Origin: Chthoniobacter flavus
Lineage (GTDB): Bacteria > Verrucomicrobiota > Verrucomicrobiia > Chthoniobacterales > JACTMZ01
Direction: 5' to 3'
Length of the DNA: 64,000 bases
Assembly: GCA_945871065.1 (NCBI GenBank)
Contig: CAMBUL010000003.1
Coordinates: 269-64,268 of the forward strand
The translations under genes and the position numbers were made by a program. Position 1 is the stretch's first letter; each line of letters opens with the position of its first letter. The notes beneath the pieces are model-generated. The model was not told the DNA's origin, made no database searches, and was given only the letters and a program-made list of their open reading frames with translations. Below are positions 3,614 to 45,220 of the stretch, piece by piece.

Positions 3614-3693
3614 AAGGCTGAGACTTGAGTTTGAGACCTGAGTGGAGGGGGGAGGGAGAGTTTTAAGTTTTAGGTTTGTAAGTTTTAAGTGGC
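3614..3693 (+). repeat. Composite intergenic repeat family F, copy 1
   Basis: AAGGCTGAGACTTGAGTTTGAGACCTGAGTG...GGAGGGAG...TTTTAAGTGGC; related copies at 5632 and 6978. Confidence 0.7.
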
Positions 3694-3710
3694 TGAAGCG
3701 GCACACTGGC

Positions 3711-3786
3711 GGGTGTGCGCTTGGGAAGTAACTGGGGGGATCACCCTCATTCAGGGCGCGCGGCGGGTCCGGAGGCCCCGCCCTAC
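3711..3786 (+). repeat. REP-like family E, copy 1 (TGGGAAGTAACTGGGGG box plus GTAGGGCGGGGC hairpin end)
   Basis: 17-bp box at 3722-3738 is identical to 40624-40640 (reverse); both elements end in AGGCCCCGCCCTAC. Confidence 0.75.
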
Positions 3787-5095: not shown

Positions 5096-5362
5096 ATGGA
5101 ATTCGACTGGCTCGAGGCATCATTCGACCTCAAGGCGCTGACCCCACGGGCGATCGAAGAATCGTTCGAAGATCCGTTCAGCCTGCGACTACTGCCCGAC
5201 TATGATCATGGGGAGGCGCGCTATTTCAACCTCGGACGCTCGGTCGAGGGGCGGGGAATTTTCAGCGTGTTCTGGACGGACGGCAAAACGGTGCGGGTGG
5301 TGGCGGCGCGGCCAATGACCAAGGACGAGGAAAACTTTTTCGAAAGGAAGAATGCCGAATAG
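5096..5362 (+). CDS. BrnT-family (DUF497) toxin
   Basis: MEFDW start, GEARY..LG, VRVVAARPMT. Confidence 0.8.
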   Translation: MEFDWLEASFDLKALTPRAIEESFEDPFSLRLLPDYDHGEARYFNLGRSVEGRGIFSVFWTDGKTVRVVAARPMTKDEENFFERKNAE

Positions 5363-5639: not shown

Positions 5640-5752
5640 AAGTTGAGTTTGAGCCGGAGTGAAACGGAGACAGGTCGCCGCGGCGACCAAACCTGAGTGA
5701 AGGGGGTGAGGGGGAGGGAGTTTTAAGTGGCGGGAGTCGCGTTGGCGGGTGT
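5632..5752 (+). repeat. Composite repeat F, copy 2, carrying a family B palindrome (5673-5688)
   Basis: AAGGCTGAAAGTTGAGTTTGAG...GGTCGCCGCGGCGACC...CCTGAGTG...GGAGGGAGTTTTAAGTGGC...CGCGTTGGCGGGTGT. Confidence 0.7.
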
Positions 5753-8756: not shown

Positions 8757-10502
8757 CTAGGATTCGTTGAGGAGTCCGGTGCCGGCGCAGAGCCGGGCGT
8801 AGAGGCCGCCCTTTTGCAGGAGTTCCTCGTGTTTGCCCTGTTCGACGATGCGGCCTTGGTCGAGGACGAGAATCTGGTCGGCGTGGCGGACAGTCGAAAG
8901 ACGGTGGGCTATAACAAAGCTGGTCCGTTTTTGGAGAAGGCGATCGAGGGCCTGCTGGATGAGTTTTTCGGTGGTGTTGTCGACGCTGGCGGTGGCTTCG
9001 TCGAGGAGCAGGACGGGCGGATCCTTGAGCAAGGCGCGGGCGATGGAGATGCGTTGTTTTTCGCCCACGCTCAAGCGCACGCCGCGTTCGCCGACTTCGG
9101 TGTCGAGCTGTTTGGGGAGTTTTTCGACGAACGATGCGGCGTTGGCGGCTCGGAGGGCGGTCCAGAGTTCCTCGTCGGTGGCGTCCGGTTTGCCGAAGCG
9201 GAGATTGTCGGCCACGGTGCCGTTGAAGAGGAAGCTTTCCTGGGAGACAAGCCCGACCACCCGGCGGAGATCATTTTTGGCGAAGTTGCGGATATCCTGC
9301 CCGTCGAGCGTGATCTGGCCGCCGGTTGACTCGTAGAAGCGCATGAGGAGTCCGACAAGGGATGATTTGCCCGCTCCGGTGGGTCCGACCAAGGCGACAG
9401 TTTCCCCGGGCTTGGCCGTGAGGTTGATCTCGTGGAGGACGTCGGGTCCGTCGCCGTAGGCGAAGCGGATGTTCTCGAATTTGATTTCGCCACGGAGCGG
9501 GGACGGGACGGGGGTGTGGCCGGCGTCGGGTTCTGGTGTGGCGTCGAGAATATCAAAGACCCGTTTGCCGGCGGCGCGGCCGGCTTGGATGATTTGGTTG
9601 AGTTGGTGGAGGCGCCCGACCGGTTCGTAAAGGAAGCGGACGAGGACGAGAAAGGCGACGAGAACGCCGAGGTCCAGCTTGCCCTGGAGGGCAGCCCAGC
9701 CGCCGTAGCCGAGAACGACAAGGCTGCCCAAGGAGGAAAAGAAATTCATCCCCGGGTTGTAGAAAGCCCAGGCGCGCATCACCACGAGGGTGGTTTGGCG
9801 GAGCTTTTCGCTCGTGGTGTTGAAGCGTTCGTGTTCGGCGGTCTCCCGGGCATAGCCTTTGATCTGCCGGATACCATCGAGATTATCATGGAGGAGGGAG
9901 TTGAGGTCGGAAGCGGCGCGGCGTTGCGCGCCGTAGCGTTTGCCGGCGGTGAGGGTGTAAGCGAGGGCGCCGGCCATAAGGAAGGGCACAGGGGTGAGGG
10001 CGCAGAGAGCAAGGGCTGGGCTCCACCAGAGCATGAGACCGAAGACGACAGCGATCTGCAGGATGGCGACGGCACCTTGTTCAATGCCGTCGATGAGGAC
10101 GCGTTCGACACTGCCCACGTCTTCGACCACGCGGGTCATGATGTCGCCGGTAGCGCGGTGGTCGAACCAAGTGAGAGGCAGGGATTGGAGCCGCCCGTAA
10201 AGATCACTGCGCAGATCGTAGAGGACGCGTTGCTCGAAGCTGTTGTTGAGGAGGATGCGGAGCGTGTTGAGTCCGTCCTGGGCGAAGAAGCCGAAGGCCG
10301 CGAGCGCGATCATCGGCCAGAGGGCATCGGCTTTGCCGCCGCGCAGCACATCGTCAATGATGCGCTGGGTGACCACCGGGAAGATGATGACCATGACGGA
10401 GGCGCCAAGCGCGCAGAGCAAGGTGGCCGCGGCGAGCAGCGGGTAGCGGCGGAGATAGGCAAAGACTCGGGCGAGGATACGCGGGGATTGGTCGGACGAC
10501 AT
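8757..10502 (-). CDS. ABC exporter, fused permease/ATPase (MsbA-like)
   Basis: 6-TM domain plus GPTGAGKS, LSVGEKQR, LLLDEAT, IAHRLST. Confidence 0.92.
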   Translation of the reverse strand: MSSDQSPRILARVFAYLRRYPLLAAATLLCALGASVMVIIFPVVTQRIIDDVLRGGKADALWPMIALAAFGFFAQDGLNTLRILLNNSFEQRVLYDLRSDLYGRLQSLPLTWFDHRATGDIMTRVVEDVGSVERVLIDGIEQGAVAILQIAVVFGLMLWWSPALALCALTPVPFLMAGALAYTLTAGKRYGAQRRAASDLNSLLHDNLDGIRQIKGYARETAEHERFNTTSEKLRQTTLVVMRAWAFYNPGMNFFSSLGSLVVLGYGGWAALQGKLDLGVLVAFLVLVRFLYEPVGRLHQLNQIIQAGRAAGKRVFDILDATPEPDAGHTPVPSPLRGEIKFENIRFAYGDGPDVLHEINLTAKPGETVALVGPTGAGKSSLVGLLMRFYESTGGQITLDGQDIRNFAKNDLRRVVGLVSQESFLFNGTVADNLRFGKPDATDEELWTALRAANAASFVEKLPKQLDTEVGERGVRLSVGEKQRISIARALLKDPPVLLLDEATASVDNTTEKLIQQALDRLLQKRTSFVIAHRLSTVRHADQILVLDQGRIVEQGKHEELLQKGGLYARLCAGTGLLNES

Positions 10503-35374: not shown

Positions 35375-35953
35375 TCAGAGAGCGACGTACCATTGCCAAT
35401 CGTCGGGACTGGCACAGAGATGTTTGACGACCGGATTGCGGCGGATGTAGTCGTATTTCAAATTGGCTTCGGCCTCGTTGCGCAGACGGTGGTCGAAGAA
35501 GTTGTCCTGCCAGGCAATTCCGTGCTCTTTGGTATGGTATCTTTTCCACTGGCCGATGACGCGTGACATCGATTCCTGCGCTGGGAAGGACAAGATGGCG
35601 TGCAGATGATCGGGCATGAGCAGGAAAATTGTCGCATGCCAGCGCTGCCGGTTTTGGTAAAAAGCGACCGAGTCTAGGAGATGCGTAGCAATCTTCGGGT
35701 CTGTCAACGGACGGAGGTATTCCTGGGACACGCGGACGCGGATATGAAATCGTGATCCGTCAGGAATCCAAGACGGCACCGCGTGGTGCAGCTTTTTTCC
35801 GAAAGGCGGGTGGATCGCGCCGTCCCGGCGCGATGTGTCTTGGGGCTTGATCGCGATAGAACCGAAGCGATCCGGAGTCCGCCGCGGCGACCAACTGACC
35901 GCGCAGATAGGCCTTAGGCAAACATCGCGATCCACCTTGGCCACTTTGTTCAT
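35375..35953 (-). CDS. REP-associated tyrosine transposase (RAYT, Y1/HUH family); start uncertain
   Basis: MPDHLH (HUH), WQDNFFDHRLR, YIRRNPV catalytic Tyr region; flanked by GTGG-foot hairpins. Confidence 0.88.
   Translation of the reverse strand: MNKVAKVDRDVCLRPICAVSWSPRRTPDRFGSIAIKPQDTSRRDGAIHPPFGKKLHHAVPSWIPDGSRFHIRVRVSQEYLRPLTDPKIATHLLDSVAFYQNRQRWHATIFLLMPDHLHAILSFPAQESMSRVIGQWKRYHTKEHGIAWQDNFFDHRLRNEAEANLKYDYIRRNPVVKHLCASPDDWQWYVAL
35809..35936. repeat. REP cluster (family D plus degenerate B) at the RAYT 5' end
   Basis: 35809-35834 identical to 35308-35333; degenerate inverted copies at 35850-35873 and 35923-35936; GCCGCGGCGACCAA at 35881. Confidence 0.85.
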
Positions 35954-38122: not shown

Positions 38123-39373
38123 TTAGCCGGCCTTTGTGAAGTCCAGTGCGGCGAGGCGCCGGGCTGCTTCGATGGCGCGCTCGCGGCTGTTGAAGGCGGA
38201 GATGCGGAAGTAACCTTCGCCGGCCGCCCCAAAGCCGCTGCCGGGGGTGGTGACGATGTTGGCTTCCCGCAGGAGGAAGTCGAACATGGTCCAGCTGGGG
38301 ACGCCCTCGGGTCCGCGCACCCAGATGTAAGGCGCATCGATGCCGCCATAAACCCGGAGACCGGCCCCGCTTACCGCCTCGCGCAGGATGCGGGCATTCT
38401 CCATGTAGAAATCGACCAGTGCATCCACCTCTTGTCTGCCGTTAGGCGAATAGATTGCCTCGGCGGCGCGTTGCACCGGGTACGACACGCCGTTGAACTT
38501 CGTGGTGTGGTTGCGCAGCCAGAGGGGGTAGAGCGGTTTGCTTTCACCGCCGCGGGTTTGCCCGTGGAGCGATTTCGGCACGACAGTGAAGGCGCAACGG
38601 AGTCCGGTGAAGCCGCCGTTTTTCGAGAAGCTGCGGAATTCAATGGCGCAGTCGCGCGCGCCGTCGATCTCGTAAATGGAGTGAGGTACACCGGGGGTGC
38701 GCACGTAGGCTTCGTAGGCGGCATCGAAGAGGATGATGGCTTTGTGTTTCCGTGCGTAATCAACCCAAGCGGTGAGCTGTTCGCGGGTAGCGACGGCGCC
38801 GGTCGGGTTATTCGGATAGCAGAGGTAGATCAGATCGACGGGTTCTTTCGGGATGGCGGGGACAAACCCGTTTTCGGCGGTGCAGGGGAGATAAACGACG
38901 CCAGCATAAGCGCCGGATTCGTCGGCATCGCCGGTGTTGCCGACCATGACATTGGTGTCGACGTAAACGGGATAGACCGGATCGGTGATGGCCACGCGGT
39001 TGCCGGGGCCGAAGATGTCGAGGATGTTGCCGCAGTCGCACTTCGAGCCGTCGGAGACAAAGATTTCGTCGTCAGCGATGTCGAGCCCGCGGTCGCGAAA
39101 ATCGTGTTGCGCGATGGCCTGGCGGAGGAAGTCGTAGCCTTGTTCGGGTCCGTATCCGCGGAAGGTGTCGCGGTGGCCCAGTTCATCGACCGCTTTGTGC
39201 AGCGCCTCACGGCAGGCCGCGGGGAGGGGTTCGGTCACATCACCGATCCCGCAGCGAATGACCCGGCCGGCCGCGTCGGGATGAGCCTCGGTGAAAGCTT
39301 TGACCCGCCGCGCAATCTCGGGGAAGAGGTAGCCGGCTTTGAGTTTGGAATAGTTTTCGTTGAGGTAGGCCAT
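38123..39373 (-). CDS. dapL: LL-diaminopimelate aminotransferase
   Basis: [47 protein letters not shown]. Confidence 0.95.
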
Positions 39374-39527
39374 GGGAAAAGAAGGTGGAGTTTAGAACGC
39401 AGAGCGAAGATGTCAAAGAGCGACGGGATGCGACCGCCAGCCGTGGCCTGCTGTCCTCTTCTGCACATACCAACCAAGCGCAGAGGCAATCCAGCCACAG
39501 CCGAGTCCTCGAACCGAGGCTTGGCGA

Positions 39528-39594
39528 GATAGGTCGCCGTGGCGATCAACTGATACCGTAACGCAGTGGAGATGGGTCGCCGCGGCGACCAAAC
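39528..39594. repeat. Tandem family B palindromes
   Basis: GATA-GGTCGCCGTGGCGATC-AA (39528) and GATG-GGTCGCCGCGGCGACC-AAAC (39571); the same core occurs at 5673. Confidence 0.8.
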
Positions 39595-39600
39595 AGACAG

Positions 39601-39614
39601 CTCGAAGAGCTGAG
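39601..39614 (+). repeat. Left 14-bp inverted repeat
   Basis: CTCGAAGAGCTGAG; exact reverse complement at 44247-44260. Confidence 0.6.
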
Positions 39615-39637
39615 CACAGCGTTCAAATTAAGACCCC

Positions 39638-39940
39638 TCAAGCCGCCAACTTGGTGAAGTCGCCTTTGACTTTGGCGGTGATCCGGTTGGCTTGTTTCAT
39701 GATCCGGCGGAAATCGCAGGCTGTTTGGATATTGAACCAGAACTGTGGGCTTTGTTTGAAAAATTTGCCCAGCTTGAGTGACATCTCGGGCGTAATGGCG
39801 CGGCGCCCAAGCACGATTTCGTTGATACCGCGAGGGCTGACACCCAAGGCCCGGCCCAGCGCGTTCTGCGAAATGCCCATCGGCTCAAGGTAGTCTTCGA
39901 GCAGGATTTCCCCGGGAGTGAGCGGCGTTTTCATTTTCAT
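39638..39940 (-). CDS. higA: HigA-family antitoxin (XRE HTH)
   Basis: [18 protein letters not shown]...LGVS...INEI..G.R.IT.EM.L.L..FF..S.QFW.N.Q. Confidence 0.92.
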
Positions 39941-39943
39941 ATC

Positions 39944-40243
39944 CTATAGCGTTATAGGGGGCTGTCCATGGTAGTCCGTGATCGAGACATCGGCCGGGCC
40001 TTGTGCGGTCCAGCGGAAGACAATGCGCCACTGGTCGTTGATCCGGATTGAGTGCCAGCCGGCTGCCCGGCCCTTGAGTGGTTCAAGTCTGTTTCCCGGT
40101 GGAACGGCAAGGTCCTGCGCCTGTTCAGCCGCATCCACCGCGATCAGCTTGCGCAGGGCGACGCGGGCAATCTGGGAAAAGCGGCGGTTGGCCTCCTCCC
40201 GGAAGAGTTCCTCTGTGTTGTCGTCGCCGAAGGAAACAATCAT
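39944..40243 (-). CDS. higB: HigB-family toxin (plasmid maintenance killer type)
   Basis: MI.SF.D..TEELF, DL..PPGNRLE.LKG...G.HSIRINDQWR.VFRW...DYH. Confidence 0.93.
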   Translation of the reverse strand: MIVSFGDDNTEELFREEANRRFSQIARVALRKLIAVDAAEQAQDLAVPPGNRLEPLKGRAAGWHSIRINDQWRIVFRWTAQGPADVSITDYHGQPPITL

Positions 40244-40472
40244 GCGTTGCCGGGCATCTTAGGAACGTCATGCGCTGGCGGAAGGCGAAACTAGGGAGGA
40301 AGGAAAACTTAGCCACCGATAGACGTAGCTGAGTCTGCGAATGGTAACGCATTGGAGCTCGGTCGCTGCGGCTGCGAGGCCGCAAACGAATAAACGAGGA
40401 TGACTGGGAAATGGCATTTGCCGTCTGATTGCCTCCCGATTAACACCGAGTCTTATGCCGCATATGTCCCCG

Positions 40473-40660
40473 GGTAGGGCGGGGCCTTTGCCTATGGGCC
40501 ATCTTCACTGCGCTCCGGTTGCACCCGCCGTGCGCCCCCCAAAGAAGGGCGACTATCCCGGCGCGCCGAGGATCCGCACACGGCGGACTGGGTGCCGCGC
40601 CCTACCTCTTCGCCCATGTCGATCCCCCAGTTACTTCCCAGCACACACCGCGCCAACGCG
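40473..40660 (-). repeat. REP-like family E, copy 2 (long form)
   Basis: GGTAGGGCGGGGC (40473-40485) / GCCGCGCCCTACC (40594-40606) inverted ends plus the 17-bp box shared with 3722-3738. Confidence 0.75.
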
Positions 40661-40881
40661 CGGGTTCAGGGACTCTGGGCCGTCTCGCAAAGCATCGGCT
40701 GCGGCCGCCGCAACCGTCAATTTCACCCGCATTACGGCGACGAGATACTGTTTGCGCAGAGGCTGAAACATAGTAGATCTCTCTTTCTGTTGTCATCGTT
40801 TCTGGTGTGCCGGCCGCGGATCTCCAATTTTGACAGCGGCAGGTAATGTCGGTGTTGGTCGCGGCCGGAGAAAACACGCTT

Positions 40882-43800
40882 ATGAAACACCCGCTCGCCT
40901 TCGGCGCCGTTCTCTACGTCGCACTGATGACCATTTCCGCTGCCCGCGCGCAGACAGAACTCTATATCGATTCTGGAACCACCGCACCTATGACACGGAG
41001 CTTCACTTCAGGATCCAACGGTTATTCGGAAATCTATGAGGCTTTGTTAGTCACTTCTTCTAACAACGTATTGATCGTTTCCAACACAGGCACCCTGCTC
41101 AATGCCAGTGGCTCCACCTATATCGGATACAAGGGTTCCGGGGGTAATAACCTCACCATTGCAGGCGGTGGAGTATTCAAAGGAACCGCTGCCTTTGTGG
41201 GATACACGAACAGCGCCGCCAGCAACTCGGTTCTGGTTACAGGGGCTGGTTCCAGTTGGACCAACAGCGGTGATCTGAACTTCGGTCGTTATAGTTCGGG
41301 AAACAGTATGGTGGTTTCGGACGGCGGGCTGGTCTCCGCTGCTAATCTCTACATGTCGAGTCTCGCTGGCGGGGGTAATGCAATCCAAGTGACGGGTTTG
41401 GGATCTCGCTTGGTTGCAAACAGTGGTTTCGAGATCGGTAAGGCCGGGACGGGCGGTAACAGCGTCACGATCTCCAACGGTGGAAGGGTGGAGAATAATT
41501 CCGGCTATGGGTTCATCGGCTATGCCGCCACAGCTTCGAACAACTCGGTGACGGTGACCGGGACTAACTCCCGCTGGAGCAACAGTCCATCTTTCGGGTT
41601 TTATGTGGGCTAGCAAAGCAGCGGTAACAACCTGGTCATTTCCAACGGAGGGGGCGTGAATAGCACGGCGGCAGGGATCGGCGATGCAGTCACCTCCTCC
41701 AATAACTCCGTTCTGGTGACGGGAGCCGGCTCCTTCTGGAGCAATAGCGGATCAATGACTTTGGGAAATCTTGGCGCCGGCAACAGTCTGGTCATCTCCA
41801 ATGGAGCGAGGGTGGTGAGTTCAAGCGGCCTGTCCTTAGGCCAATTTGCAGGCTCCACCAATAACTCGGTCCTGGTAACGGGACTAGGATCGAGCTTCAG
41901 TAGTACGAACAGCTTGCTGATCGGGCCAAGGGGAGGGGGAGTTTTCACGGTGGCTGACGGTGGCTCCATGGCAGCCAGAGACATCACGATTGCTTCGGAA
42001 GCGGGGTCTTCAGGTGTGCTGAACGTCGGCTACGGGGCTGCCATCTCCACCGGCACCATCACCATCACCACCGGGGCTACGAATTCCACCGGCACCCTGA
42101 ACTTTATCGACTCGGTGGGCGCCATCAGTGAGACGACATTCGGTGCTTCGACCGTCACCTTCGGGATCGGAACTGCCACGATCAACATGAATCAGGGAAA
42201 TGCTGTCACCATTGCTTCTACAATCAACGGCGGTGGCACTCTCAATCAACTTGGACCGGGACAGACATTCCTCTCGGGTAACAGCACCTTCTTCACCGGC
42301 TCCACAGTCATCAGTGGCGGCTCCCTTTGGGTAACGGGTGCCAATGCCCTGGGCAGTAGCAAGGTCACTCTCAACGGGGGTCTACTTGCTCTTCCTTACG
42401 GCGTCACCCTTTCCAACTCCTTTGACTGGAACTCCTCGGGATCGATTTATTTAGGGGGAAGTTCCAGCTCTGTGAGCCCTCTGACCATGGCTGGCGGCAC
42501 CCTCACGCTCACGGGCAGTTCCCTTCACACTTTTTCACTGGATTACACATATCGTCTCAGCACCGACCCCGCGCAGATCCTTGTTGGGGTCGGCGGAAAT
42601 TCGGCCAGTCAGTTCGGTGTCTCCGGCCGGGATAACTACGCCCTGTTCGTCAGCAATAACACGCTTTGGGTCACGCTCGGCAACCTCTATGTAGGAACCA
42701 ACTCCACGCCGGCAACCAAGAGTTTCACATCCGGCACTCTGGAATACAACAACACCTACGTCGGCTTCTCCCCCACAGCCTCGAACAACACCCTCAATGT
42801 ATCCGGCGCAGGTACCGTCCTGACCAACCACACCGACCTCTACGTCGGCTACGAGGGCAGCAGCAACACGATGCAGGTGGCCAACGGTGGCACCGTGGCG
42901 AACACCATCGGCTTCATCGGAAATGCCTCCACCTCCTCCAACAACAGCGTGCTCGTAACCGGGGCGAACTCGCTCTGGACCAACAGCGCTAATCTCTATG
43001 TCGGCTACGGCGGCAGCGGCAACAACCTCACCATCGCTGACGGTGGCACCGTGGCGGCCTCGAACATCAGCATCGCCTCACAGGCCGGTTCCTCCGGCAC
43101 ACTCAACATCGGTCGCTTCGGAACCAACGACACCGCGGGCACGATCAACGCCCCGACCATCGCCTTTGGAAGCGGCACGGGCGCGATCAACTTCAACCAG
43201 AGCAATGCGGTGACGATCACCAGCGCCATTTCCGGCAATGGTGCGGTGAACCAACTCGGCACCGGCACGACGATCCTGAGTGCGTCGAACACCTATACGG
43301 GTGGCACGATGGTCTCGGCGGGATCGCTCGTCGGCACGACGGCCAGCCTGCAGGGCGCGATCACCAACAATGCGGCGGTAACCTTCGATCAGAGCACCGA
43401 CGGCACCTACAGCGGGGCGATGAGTGGCAGTGGCTCCCTGAGCAAAACCGGCATCGGCCGCCTCAGCCTGAGCGGGAGCAGCAGTTACAATGGCGCAACC
43501 ACGGTCTCGGCCGGCGACCTCAACCTCTCCGGTGGATCGATCACCAACTCTGCGGTCACCGTGGCCTCCGGCGCGAGCCTCAGCGGCTACGGCTCGGTCG
43601 GCACGATCGGCGGCGCGGGCGCGATCAATCCGGGCAACAGCCCCGGCATTCTGACCACCCCGCAAGTGATCCCTTCGGGCGGAACGACTTTCAACTTTGA
43701 AATGACCGGCACTGCTCCGATCTACAGTAATGCGGCCAGCAGCACGAACGACCTCATCCGGATCACGGGCATGCTACCGACCACGCCATTCAGTCAGGCC

Positions 43801-44211
43801 CTCACCGCGAGCAACGGCATCAACATTTACTTCAGCGGAGCCGCGCTCTTCACCGGCAGCACCGCGGTGCAATATAAAGGTGGCTTTTTCACCGACCAGT
43901 CAGCGAGTTTCGCCGGCTTCATCACCAACGCGACGTACAATTACTACTTCGCCAACGCGATCGGGACCAATTCCTATAACGGGGCCAATTACTACAGCAA
44001 AGCCCAATACGAAACCGCCGTGCTATCGAACAACCTGATGACCATCACCATCACAACGGTGGCCCGCGCCGCCGATTTCGGCAGTGGCAACGTGAACGGG
44101 CAGGTCATGCAAATCGACGTCATCCCCGAGCCGAGCACCTACGCGCTGCTCGTGCTGGCGGTGATTGGGTTGGGCGTGCAATGCTGGCGCCGACGGCGGA
44201 AGGTGGCCTGA
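40882..44211 (+). pseudogene. PEP-CTERM surface protein with T5SS/PEP-CTERM-associated and autotransporter-type beta-strand repeats, interrupted by an in-frame TAG at 41611-41613
   Basis: ORFs 40846-41613 and 41656-44211 are in the same frame; signal peptide MKHPLAFG...ARA; C-terminus VIPEPSTYALLVLAVIGLGVQCWRRRRK. Confidence 0.8.
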
Positions 44212-44246
44212 TTTTTTTGAACAGCAGGTAGCGAAGGGGGAAGCCA

Positions 44247-44260
44247 CTCAGCTCTTCGAG
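44247..44260 (-). repeat. Right 14-bp inverted repeat
   Basis: CTCAGCTCTTCGAG, reverse complement of 39601-39614. Confidence 0.6.
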
Positions 44261-44280
44261 TTGCCCAACGAGTGAGTCGT

Positions 44281-45129
44281 CTATTCGCCGAGGGCCTCGG
44301 CCACCGCGCGCTGGAAGACGGATTCCTCGGGGGTGAGGTCGGTCCAGCGCTGGAAAATTTGCATGGCCAATTGCACGAGCATTTCCACCCCGTCGACGGT
44401 GCGGCAACCGTGGTCACGGGCCGTGGCGAGGAAAGGGGTGATGCGTGGATTGGTGATCACATCGACCACGGCGCAGTCCGTGCTGACCGTATCCCAAAGC
44501 ACCGGCACCGGCTCCAGTTCGGGCGCGCAGCCCAGATGGGTGGCGTTCATGAGCAATGTGGTGCCGGCCGGCACTTCCACTTCCCGCTGCCATGCCTGCC
44601 ATTGGCTGGGCACGCCGCTGGCTTTCTCAACGAGGGCGGCCACTTCGCGCCCCTGCTCTTCGCGGCGCGTCACAAGGGTCATCTTGGCGGCTCCGGCCCA
44701 GGCGATTTCTACGGCCATGGCGCGTCCGGCACCGCCGGCGCCGAGCATGACCACGTGCTGACCGCGCAGAGGCACCACTTTTTCGATCGCTTTGACCACG
44801 CCCTTGCCGTCGTTGTTGTGGCCGACGAGACGACCCTTTTCGATCGTCACGTAATTGGCGGCGCCGATGGCGCGCACGTCATCGTCGACTTCGTCGAGCA
44901 GCGGAATAACCGCCACTTTGTAGGGCACGGTGACGCACATCCCGCGGTAGCCGAGCGGCACGAGGGCGGCCACGGCCAGGCGGAGGTCGGATTCGGAGGC
45001 GATGTTATTTTTCCAAAATTGCCAAGGCAGTCCGTAATGCGCGTAGACCGCGTCGAACATGCGGTCGATCGGGTTCTCGGCCACCGGGTGACCGAGCATG
45101 CCGGTCATTTGTTTTTGCGGAGGGATCAT
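44281..45129 (-). CDS. Shikimate/quinate dehydrogenase-family protein with non-canonical substrate motifs
   Basis: G.PV, VTVPYK, IGAAN, HNNDG, LGAGGAGRA, NATHLG, DG..MLV..A..F..WT. Confidence 0.85.
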   Translation of the reverse strand: MIPPQKQMTGMLGHPVAENPIDRMFDAVYAHYGLPWQFWKNNIASESDLRLAVAALVPLGYRGMCVTVPYKVAVIPLLDEVDDDVRAIGAANYVTIEKGRLVGHNNDGKGVVKAIEKVVPLRGQHVVMLGAGGAGRAMAVEIAWAGAAKMTLVTRREEQGREVAALVEKASGVPSQWQAWQREVEVPAGTTLLMNATHLGCAPELEPVPVLWDTVSTDCAVVDVITNPRITPFLATARDHGCRTVDGVEMLVQLAMQIFQRWTDLTPEESVFQRAVAEALGE

Positions 45130-45185: not shown

Positions 45186-45220
45186 AAAAAAACCCGAGGC
45201 GTTGGGGCCTCGGGTTTTTT
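45186..45220. terminator. Bidirectional Rho-independent terminator downstream of the SOD gene
   Basis: AAAAAAA-CCCGAGGC-GTTGGG-GCCTCGGG-TTTTTT. Confidence 0.9.

Follow-up and report, generated by a model that had tools for sequence, protein, structure and literature searches.

An accessory islet in the aroE-dapL gap of a freshwater Chthoniobacterales member and the short inverted repeat inside it

Does a short perfect inverted repeat on both sides of a surface-protein gene mark a mobile or invertible cassette? This question is raised by a stretch of DNA of 64,000 nucleotides (nt), here called the window (contig CAMBUL010000003.1 of assembly GCA_945871065.1), from an uncultured, lake-dwelling freshwater member of the Chthoniobacterales (Verrucomicrobiota). 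In the window, a higBA toxin-antitoxin pair and the gene of a large PEP-CTERM/PATR surface protein lie between the core gene dapL and an aroE-like gene, and the two arms of a perfect 14-nt inverted repeat are found near the ends of this block. The original prediction described the block as an exchangeable or invertible surface-antigen cassette, bounded by the repeat, stabilised by the toxin-antitoxin module and mobilised in trans. We compared the locus in relatives, using fetched loci and metagenome contigs (about 25 assemblies), and in the contigs of eight runs (X1-X8), which are lake metagenomes stored as assembled contigs. It is probable that the block is an accessory islet in a turnover hotspot between aroE and dapL, where recombination acts without a mobile element and the 14-nt repeat is coincidental.

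Strain variants of the aroE-dapL junction

The extent of the islet follows from strains in which it is missing. Among contigs encoding an identical DapL protein, the aroE-dapL gap is empty in L082, L083 and L084, with 59 nt from the aroE stop codon to the dapL ATG, and the insertion listed in Table 1 is given relative to these strains. The arrangement of the window is repeated in L081 and in L090+L092. L085-L088 carry higBA together with another surface-protein gene body, and their homology to the window ends roughly 30-45 nt past the start of the gene (40874-40890). Look-ups with HigA led to L096 and L097, which have the order aroE-higB-higA-hsdR, hsdR being the gene of a type I restriction enzyme. 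Their junctions (44269|40404 and 39634|39498) leave out the surface-protein module, the REP-like cluster next to higA and both arms of the repeat. The complete block, 96-97% identical and with an intact surface-protein gene, was found in L103, L104, L107 and L108. In the sister species L002/L003 (DapL 94% identical) a sugar ABC transporter occupies the gap, while the gap of L001 is empty and an abiEii pair lies between sodA and aroE. Elsewhere in the bacterial order, sodA directly adjoins dapL.

The junction therefore occurs in five forms (empty, higBA with surface-protein allele PEP-A, higBA with PEP-B, higBA with hsdR, and the ABC transporter), as expected for a gene-transfer hotspot. These empty sites, alternative cargoes and alternative surface-protein alleles bear out the part of the original prediction that called the block exchangeable. 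Moreover, the islet is modular, consisting of higBA with its 3' hairpin, the REP-like cluster and the divergent PEP-CTERM/PATR gene, and these modules are separately present, absent or replaced among strains with identical DapL.

The same variation is seen within single populations. In run X8, a contig of depth 60 joins position 39397 to 44282 via the empty-site sequence, and contigs of the filled form have depths of 28-47; both forms were thus present in the same lake metagenome. In run X5, the organism is very abundant, with a depth of about 600. The majority strain of this run shares higBA and the gap next to aroE, with the right arm of the repeat, but differs in the surface-protein body, and the allele of the window is found at a depth of only about 5. 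Homology of the majority contig to the window resumes at 44123 (loose end 44114), within the PEP-CTERM anchor. The swapped body, whose protein is about 40% identical between the two alleles, is thus enclosed by conserved gene ends, namely the first 30-45 nt or so and the last 90-100 nt or so, which encode the anchor.

The borders of the structural differences (39423/44281, 40404/44269 and 39498/39634) do not coincide with an arm of the repeat. Instead, the arms are located 178 nt and 21 nt inside the borders of the insertion, on modules that vary separately, and the block is thus not bounded by the repeat as had been proposed. Since the arms are not at the insertion borders, the islet does not have the terminal inverted repeats of a transposon. 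A transposon was also ruled out by the lack of a target-site duplication and of a transposase.

How could such an islet be turned over? Incoming DNA would be exchanged by ordinary homologous recombination, without a dedicated recombinase, and the crossovers would lie in the conserved flanking genes. For the swap of the surface-protein body, crossovers may fall in the conserved 5' signal-peptide end and the 3' PEP-CTERM-anchor end of the gene, and the 14-nt repeat would play no part in the turnover. Three observations suggest homologous recombination. First, aroE of L084 (9091-9940) is mosaic and contains a recombination breakpoint, identity to the window being 82% over the 5' third and 96-97% beyond it; this is the single clear case seen. 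Second, the body swap occurs between conserved gene ends. Third, the GC content is lower in the islet, with 52-58% around higA and in the first two-thirds of the surface-protein gene versus 61-68% in the flanks. Upstream of aroE, L084 carries unrelated genes (an MFS transporter and hypotheticals) instead of sodA.

The inverted repeat and alternative explanations

A pattern search found CTCGAAGAGCTGAG at 39601-39614 on the forward strand and its exact reverse complement at 44247-44260, as had been reported. The match extends to 16 of 17 bases (39598-39614 versus 44247-44263). Both arms are intergenic, in the two gaps that separate higBA and the PEP-CTERM/PATR gene from dapL and the aroE-like gene, respectively. 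The arms are bordered on their outer sides by ACAGACAG and TTGCCCAA, which form no target-site duplication, and neither the list of open reading frames nor a domain search revealed a recombinase or transposase gene inside the block; in both respects the earlier description was right. No third copy of the 14-mer occurs in the window, whether 1 or up to 3 mismatches are allowed, and among the loci of close relatives copies of the arms are found at homologous positions only. The arms were also considered as members of the local REP-like family, and this was ruled out, again because no extra copy with up to 3 mismatches exists in the window.

How surprising is the repeat? The window contains 51 perfect inverted 14-mer k-mer pairs, about 31 of them independent, and such pairs are therefore common; one further inverted pair, of 15 nt, lies inside the same 5-kb block. 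Intergenic DNA makes up only about 7% of the window, according to a rough gene map. When the intergenic segments were shuffled, a 14-nt inverted pair with arms within 10 kb of each other appeared in about 1% of the trials, and at any distance in about 3.5%. The original prediction had expected some chance pairs in the window and held a placement in exactly these two gaps to be unlikely. The latter stands for a single window, but the placement is not unlikely across a scan of very many windows.

The surroundings of the arms point in the same direction. Similarity between their 40-nt flanks is not significant (p = 0.10 and 0.23), and a 7-mer shared upstream of both arms (TTTGAAC) was dismissed as extended homology on the same ground. 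The T-rich start of the aroE-proximal gap is common to the 3' ends of the surface-protein paralogues. Flanks without similarity fit a chance match of the core or a very small motif, not a duplicated element.

The two arms differ in what they belong to. The left arm, in the 264-nt gap between dapL and higA, is within the hairpin CAGCTCTTCGAGCTG (39612-39598, minus strand), with TCTGTTTGGT coming next on the higA strand. This hairpin has six pairs, was called terminator-like by the scan and is located 23 nt past the higA stop codon. It trails higA in three genomic contexts: the aroE-dapL locus; L105, where it lies between mazEF and higA and the outer flanks are a response-regulator gene and an RNase R/II-type (RNB-domain) gene; and L110/L112, where a PIN-toxin gene and an abiE pair surround higA and the hairpin. 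The right arm is located 35 nt past the stop codon of the PEP-CTERM gene, in the 69-nt gap between this gene and the stop codon of the convergent aroE-like gene. It has no T-run on either strand, and the terminator scan makes no call there. L105 and L110/L112 have the left arm and not the right one, and the right arm is also absent from the paralogue context of L106. In L103, L104, L107 and L108 the left arm is mutated to CTCGAAGATCTGAG (G-to-T) and the right arm is unchanged. A single change in 28 arm bases is about the expectation from local divergence for unconstrained sequence. The right arm was found in L103, L104 and L108, and no change was listed for it in the majority contig of run X5, while L096 and L097 have neither arm. 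In relatives, all or part of the block thus occurs where the repeat pair is incomplete or altered, one example being the colinear block with the mutated left arm, which in part speaks against the original prediction. Most likely, the left arm represents the terminator-like hairpin that belongs to higA, and the right arm is an unrelated match of 14-17 nt in the aroE-proximal gap that arose by chance.

Several points weigh against an islet with a coincidental repeat. Homologous recombination was deduced from mosaic patterns and not observed, and the partial dapL 5' duplicates in the cargo variants L002 and L096 are not predicted by a simple double crossover. An inverted match between two short intergenic segments has a chance of about 1-3.5% per window, and the other two intergenic inverted pairs of the window both correspond to genuine elements, namely REP palindromes and a terminator hairpin (45187-45220). 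Both arms can fold into the same small hairpin, just past the two outward-facing genes of the block, and the allele of the higA hairpin in L110/L112 is identical to the 17-mer of the right arm. Finally, contigs and not raw reads were examined, and a rare inverted form could escape.

The alternative that survives best uses the hairpin just mentioned. Both arms would be copies of one functional hairpin, CUCAGCUCUUCGAG(C/U)UG (in DNA CTCAGCTCTTCGAG(C/T)TG), acting as a 3'-end or terminator element past both outward-facing genes. It would shield dapL and aroE from read-through, and the inverted appearance would result from its use on opposite strands, recombination not being involved. We consider this unlikely, although the low chance of the placement, the short distances to the two stop codons (23-35 nt) and the association with higA in three contexts argue for it. 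So do the left arm, which was scored as terminator-like on the higA strand and folds as predicted, and the stem variant GAGTTG of the right arm, which is a natural allele of the higA hairpin in L110/L112. However, the right arm is not followed by a T-run on either strand and was not called by the scan, and the folds of both arms are no more stable than those of shuffled sequences (z = -0.7 and +0.8). Moreover, the G-to-T change in L103/L104 disrupts the stem and is not compensated, no comparable hairpin follows the stop codons of the L105 and L106 surface-protein paralogues, and the lack of a third copy in the window also argues against a functional element.

Because the partial dapL duplicates do not fit a double crossover, a homology-anchored insertion is kept as a minor rival. 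The islet could be the remnant of insertions, site-specific or anchored by homology, that targeted the dapL 5' region, for instance through a circular intermediate with a single crossover or through rearrangement promoted by REP/RAYT elements, and not of a double crossover in the flanks. In L002, 90-nt direct repeats (5102-5191 and 9956-10045), comprising the dapL promoter and the first 15 codons, flank the 4.85-kb ABC operon, and the outer copy is 93% identical to the lineage of the window versus 83% to L002's own dapL. The first long open reading frame of this cargo starts with the N-terminus of DapL. In L096 (1613-1733 and 1920-4697), a short dapL 5' remnant is found between aroE-higBA and hsdR, preceding the restriction-modification cargo; the contig does not include the intact dapL presumed beyond it. 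In the window, REP-like units lie beside module borders (39499-39594 and 40344-40385). On the other hand, a duplicated dapL segment is lacking at the far end of the window's block, and neither an integrase nor a repeat resembling an attachment site was found. The REP clusters vary independently, suggesting that they are passengers in intergenic DNA. Taken together, we regard such an origin as quite improbable.

The arms could also be recombination sites, at which the XerD-like protein, the RAYT or an invertase of another kind would invert or exchange the cassette in trans. An exact inverted pair brackets a block that varies among strains, and the genes of a tyrosine recombinase and of a RAYT are located at distances of about 5 kb and 3.6 kb, respectively, from the left arm. 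Inversion, however, was not seen. All assemblies share one orientation, with the surface-protein gene toward aroE and higA toward dapL. The inverted form occurs in none of the about 25 assemblies, and the contigs of the eight runs contain no strand-changing joint, although contigs can miss rare forms. The XerD-like gene adjoins purC in every strain whose locus reaches that far, filled or empty, and thus looks like a housekeeping gene. With no border of a structural difference at either arm, arms that are not conserved as a pair and are unlike the local REP palindromes, and a RAYT gene that is missing from some carriers of the block (L088), both inversion and mobilisation in trans through the repeat appear highly improbable.

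Genes and elements of the islet

The features of the locus are compiled in Table 1. Domain matches confirm the proposed gene layout of dapL, higBA, the PEP-CTERM gene and the aroE-like gene. A promoter scan placed a promoter-like site near dapL at 39416-39389. The aroE-like gene scores below the cut-offs of the NCBIfam models for aroE, the true shikimate dehydrogenase. It is placed between sodA and dapL, which are neighbours elsewhere in the bacterial order, and probably represents an earlier insertion of a lineage-specific paralogue at this site. The block has no PADLOC match as anti-phage defence, and no structured RNA was matched in Rfam for the gaps and the spacer between higB and the surface-protein gene.

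Table 1. Features of the islet and its flanking genes (positions in the window)
Feature	Position	Strand	Evidence or remark
dapL (LL-diaminopimelate aminotransferase)	38123-39373	-	TIGR03542, 593 bits; core gene, one flank
Entire strain-variable insertion, 4,859 bp	39423-44281	.	Relative to empty-site strains
135-nt module	39499-39633		higA 3' hairpin, two REP-like palindromes (GGTCGCCGTGGCGATC, GGTCGCCGCGGCGACC) and another hairpin
higA antitoxin (helix-turn-helix protein), 100 aa	39638-39940	-	TIGR02607 and PF01381
higB toxin (RelE-like), 99 aa	39944-40243	-	PF05015
Divergent spacer between higB and surface-protein gene, 602 nt	40244-40845	.	REP-like unit and dispersed element within
Surface-protein module	40405-44268	.	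Absent in aroE-higBA-hsdR strains; right arm 8 nt from module end
Surface-protein gene, 5' part	40846-41613	+	Signal peptide, T5SS/PEP-CTERM-associated repeats (TIGR04393)
Surface-protein gene body	40875-44113		Swapped for other allele (protein about 40% identical)
Surface-protein gene, remaining frame	41614-44211	+	T5SS/PEP-CTERM repeats, PATR repeats, C-terminal PEP-CTERM sorting signal
aroE-like shikimate dehydrogenase paralogue	44281-45129	-	PF08501; other flank

The toxin domain of HigB was recognized with 66 bits (cut-off 27) and HigA with 98.4 bits (TIGR02607, cut-off 47.7). The pair is arranged as one operon in toxin-first order, with 3 nt between higB and the higA gene that follows it. 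By analogy with other toxin-antitoxin modules, the pair may slow the loss of the islet. Other toxin-antitoxin pairs in the neighbourhood of the locus, or next to the same higA elsewhere, are abiEi/abiEii-like (L001, 6914-8785), mazEF (L105, 656-1267) and a PIN toxin (L112, 3729-5215).

The 255-aa and 851-aa reading frames of the surface protein belong to one gene, which is split by an in-frame TAG at 41611-41613. This codon is reproducible, being present in three contigs from two samples as well as in contigs of runs X1 and X2. An intact allele of 1107 aa (P0001, 96% identical), which has TAT (Tyr) at the position of the TAG, was found in other lake samples (L103, L104 and L108). In this genome the gene is thus inactivated by a Tyr-to-amber change and is a recent pseudogene, which speaks against current selection for a surface antigen in this strain. 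The protein ends with ...VIPEPSTYALLVLAVIGLGVQCWRRRRKVA, comprising a PEP motif, a transmembrane helix and a basic tail. This tail scores 20.1 with TIGR02595 (cut-off 16) and 20.0 with Pfam PF07589, just below the cut-off of 20.7. The signal-peptide-like N-terminus is separated from the anchor by the TAG, while P0001 has both on one polypeptide. Paralogous PEP-CTERM/PATR genes are closely preceded by a conserved motif, GTTGTCATCGTT...GCCGGC...TTTGACAGCG, at 40788-40840 of the window and at about 5800-5860 of L106. It may be a shared promoter or leader.

Could higBA and the divergent, hypervariable PEP-CTERM/PATR gene form a single functional unit that moves together? HigA or HigBA, acting from the 602-nt spacer, would then control the expression of the surface protein or hold the variable gene in place, and the hairpins past the outward-facing genes would be matched 3' ends. 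We hold such a unit to be improbable.

The REP-like part of the islet is variable by itself. In L096/L097 and in one contig of run X3, the 135-nt module is replaced by 9 nt. L105 has an extra 32-nt unit, and one unit fewer is present in runs X5 and X8. Over 39442-39655 the contig depth is roughly tenfold that of adjacent sequence, and many contigs end within 39499-39594; the REP-like palindromes there are a dispersed repeat. The family has the core GGTCGCCGCGGCGACC with a conserved GAGAT(A/G) lead, and its sites in the window are 39524-39594, 5666-5692, 35880-35894 and 40344-40372. The RAYT gene (an IS200-like Y1 transposase) at 35375-35953, 3.6 kb from the islet, varies in presence among strains with identical DapL (L082, L083, L088). 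A further dispersed element of 47-55 nt (CCCCCAGTTACTTCCCAGCACACACC...) lies in the spacer between higB and the PEP-CTERM gene (40625-40679), in inverted form at 3693-3738, and also at 13506-13558 of L082, where it marks the RAYT-empty site of L082/L083. The 47-nt match between 40624-40669 and 3693-3738 had been considered as a shared surface-protein leader. This was ruled out, as the neighbours at 3.7 kb are citrate-transporter-like and CbiX-like genes, and the match is just a small dispersed repeat.

Comparison with known systems and significance

Hotspots without mobile elements, which recombine at the flanking core genes, have already been described (Oliveira et al. 2017, PMC5635113). As in these hotspots, the same interval between core genes houses different accessory genes in close strains, no integrase or transposase is present, a flanking core gene is mosaic, and toxin-antitoxin, defence and surface genes abound in the cargo. 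In contrast to them, the islet is known from metagenome assemblies of an uncultured lake verrucomicrobium and not from isolate collections, and two of its variants carry partial dapL 5' duplicates.

With type II HigBA modules the pair shares a predicted RelE-fold toxin gene directly upstream of the HigA gene and its location in accessory DNA, and it recurs beside mazEF, vapC-like PIN and abiE pairs. Unlike HigBA modules in general, it adjoins PEP-CTERM/PATR genes here and in L105, L113, L137 and L140, the pair being degenerate in the last three. HigBA occurs without a surface-protein gene in L096/L097, and no such gene was seen in the contigs of L110/L112. The surface protein resembles other PEP-CTERM (exosortase-sorted) proteins in its signal peptide, TIGR04393 and PATR repeats, PEP motif, hydrophobic helix and Arg-rich tail, but this copy is split by the amber codon.

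A short perfect inverted repeat that brackets a surface-protein gene is also a feature of invertons and composite transposons. Unlike these, the islet has a single orientation, no invertase or transposase, no target-site duplication, and arms that do not coincide with the ends of the variable segment. No dedicated invertase adjoins the block, the sole tyrosine recombinase being encoded about 5 kb away. The dapL-higA gap is similar to REP/BIME clusters with a RAYT, having tandem GC-rich palindromes, about 10-fold depth, a strain-variable number of units and a strain-variable Y1-transposase (RAYT) gene 3.6 kb away. The 14-nt arms, in contrast, are outside that repeat family.

Overall, the islet represents ordinary biology and leaves the knowledge of how such islets form unchanged. 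It provides a caution, since a short perfect intergenic inverted repeat is no evidence for a mobile or invertible cassette. The cargo of a single short gap between core genes ranges from toxin-antitoxin pairs, a restriction system and a transporter to different alleles of a large surface protein. The locus thereby offers a well-resolved case of gene turnover at the strain level in an abundant, uncultured freshwater verrucomicrobium, which is useful for studies on the microdiversity of lake bacteria.

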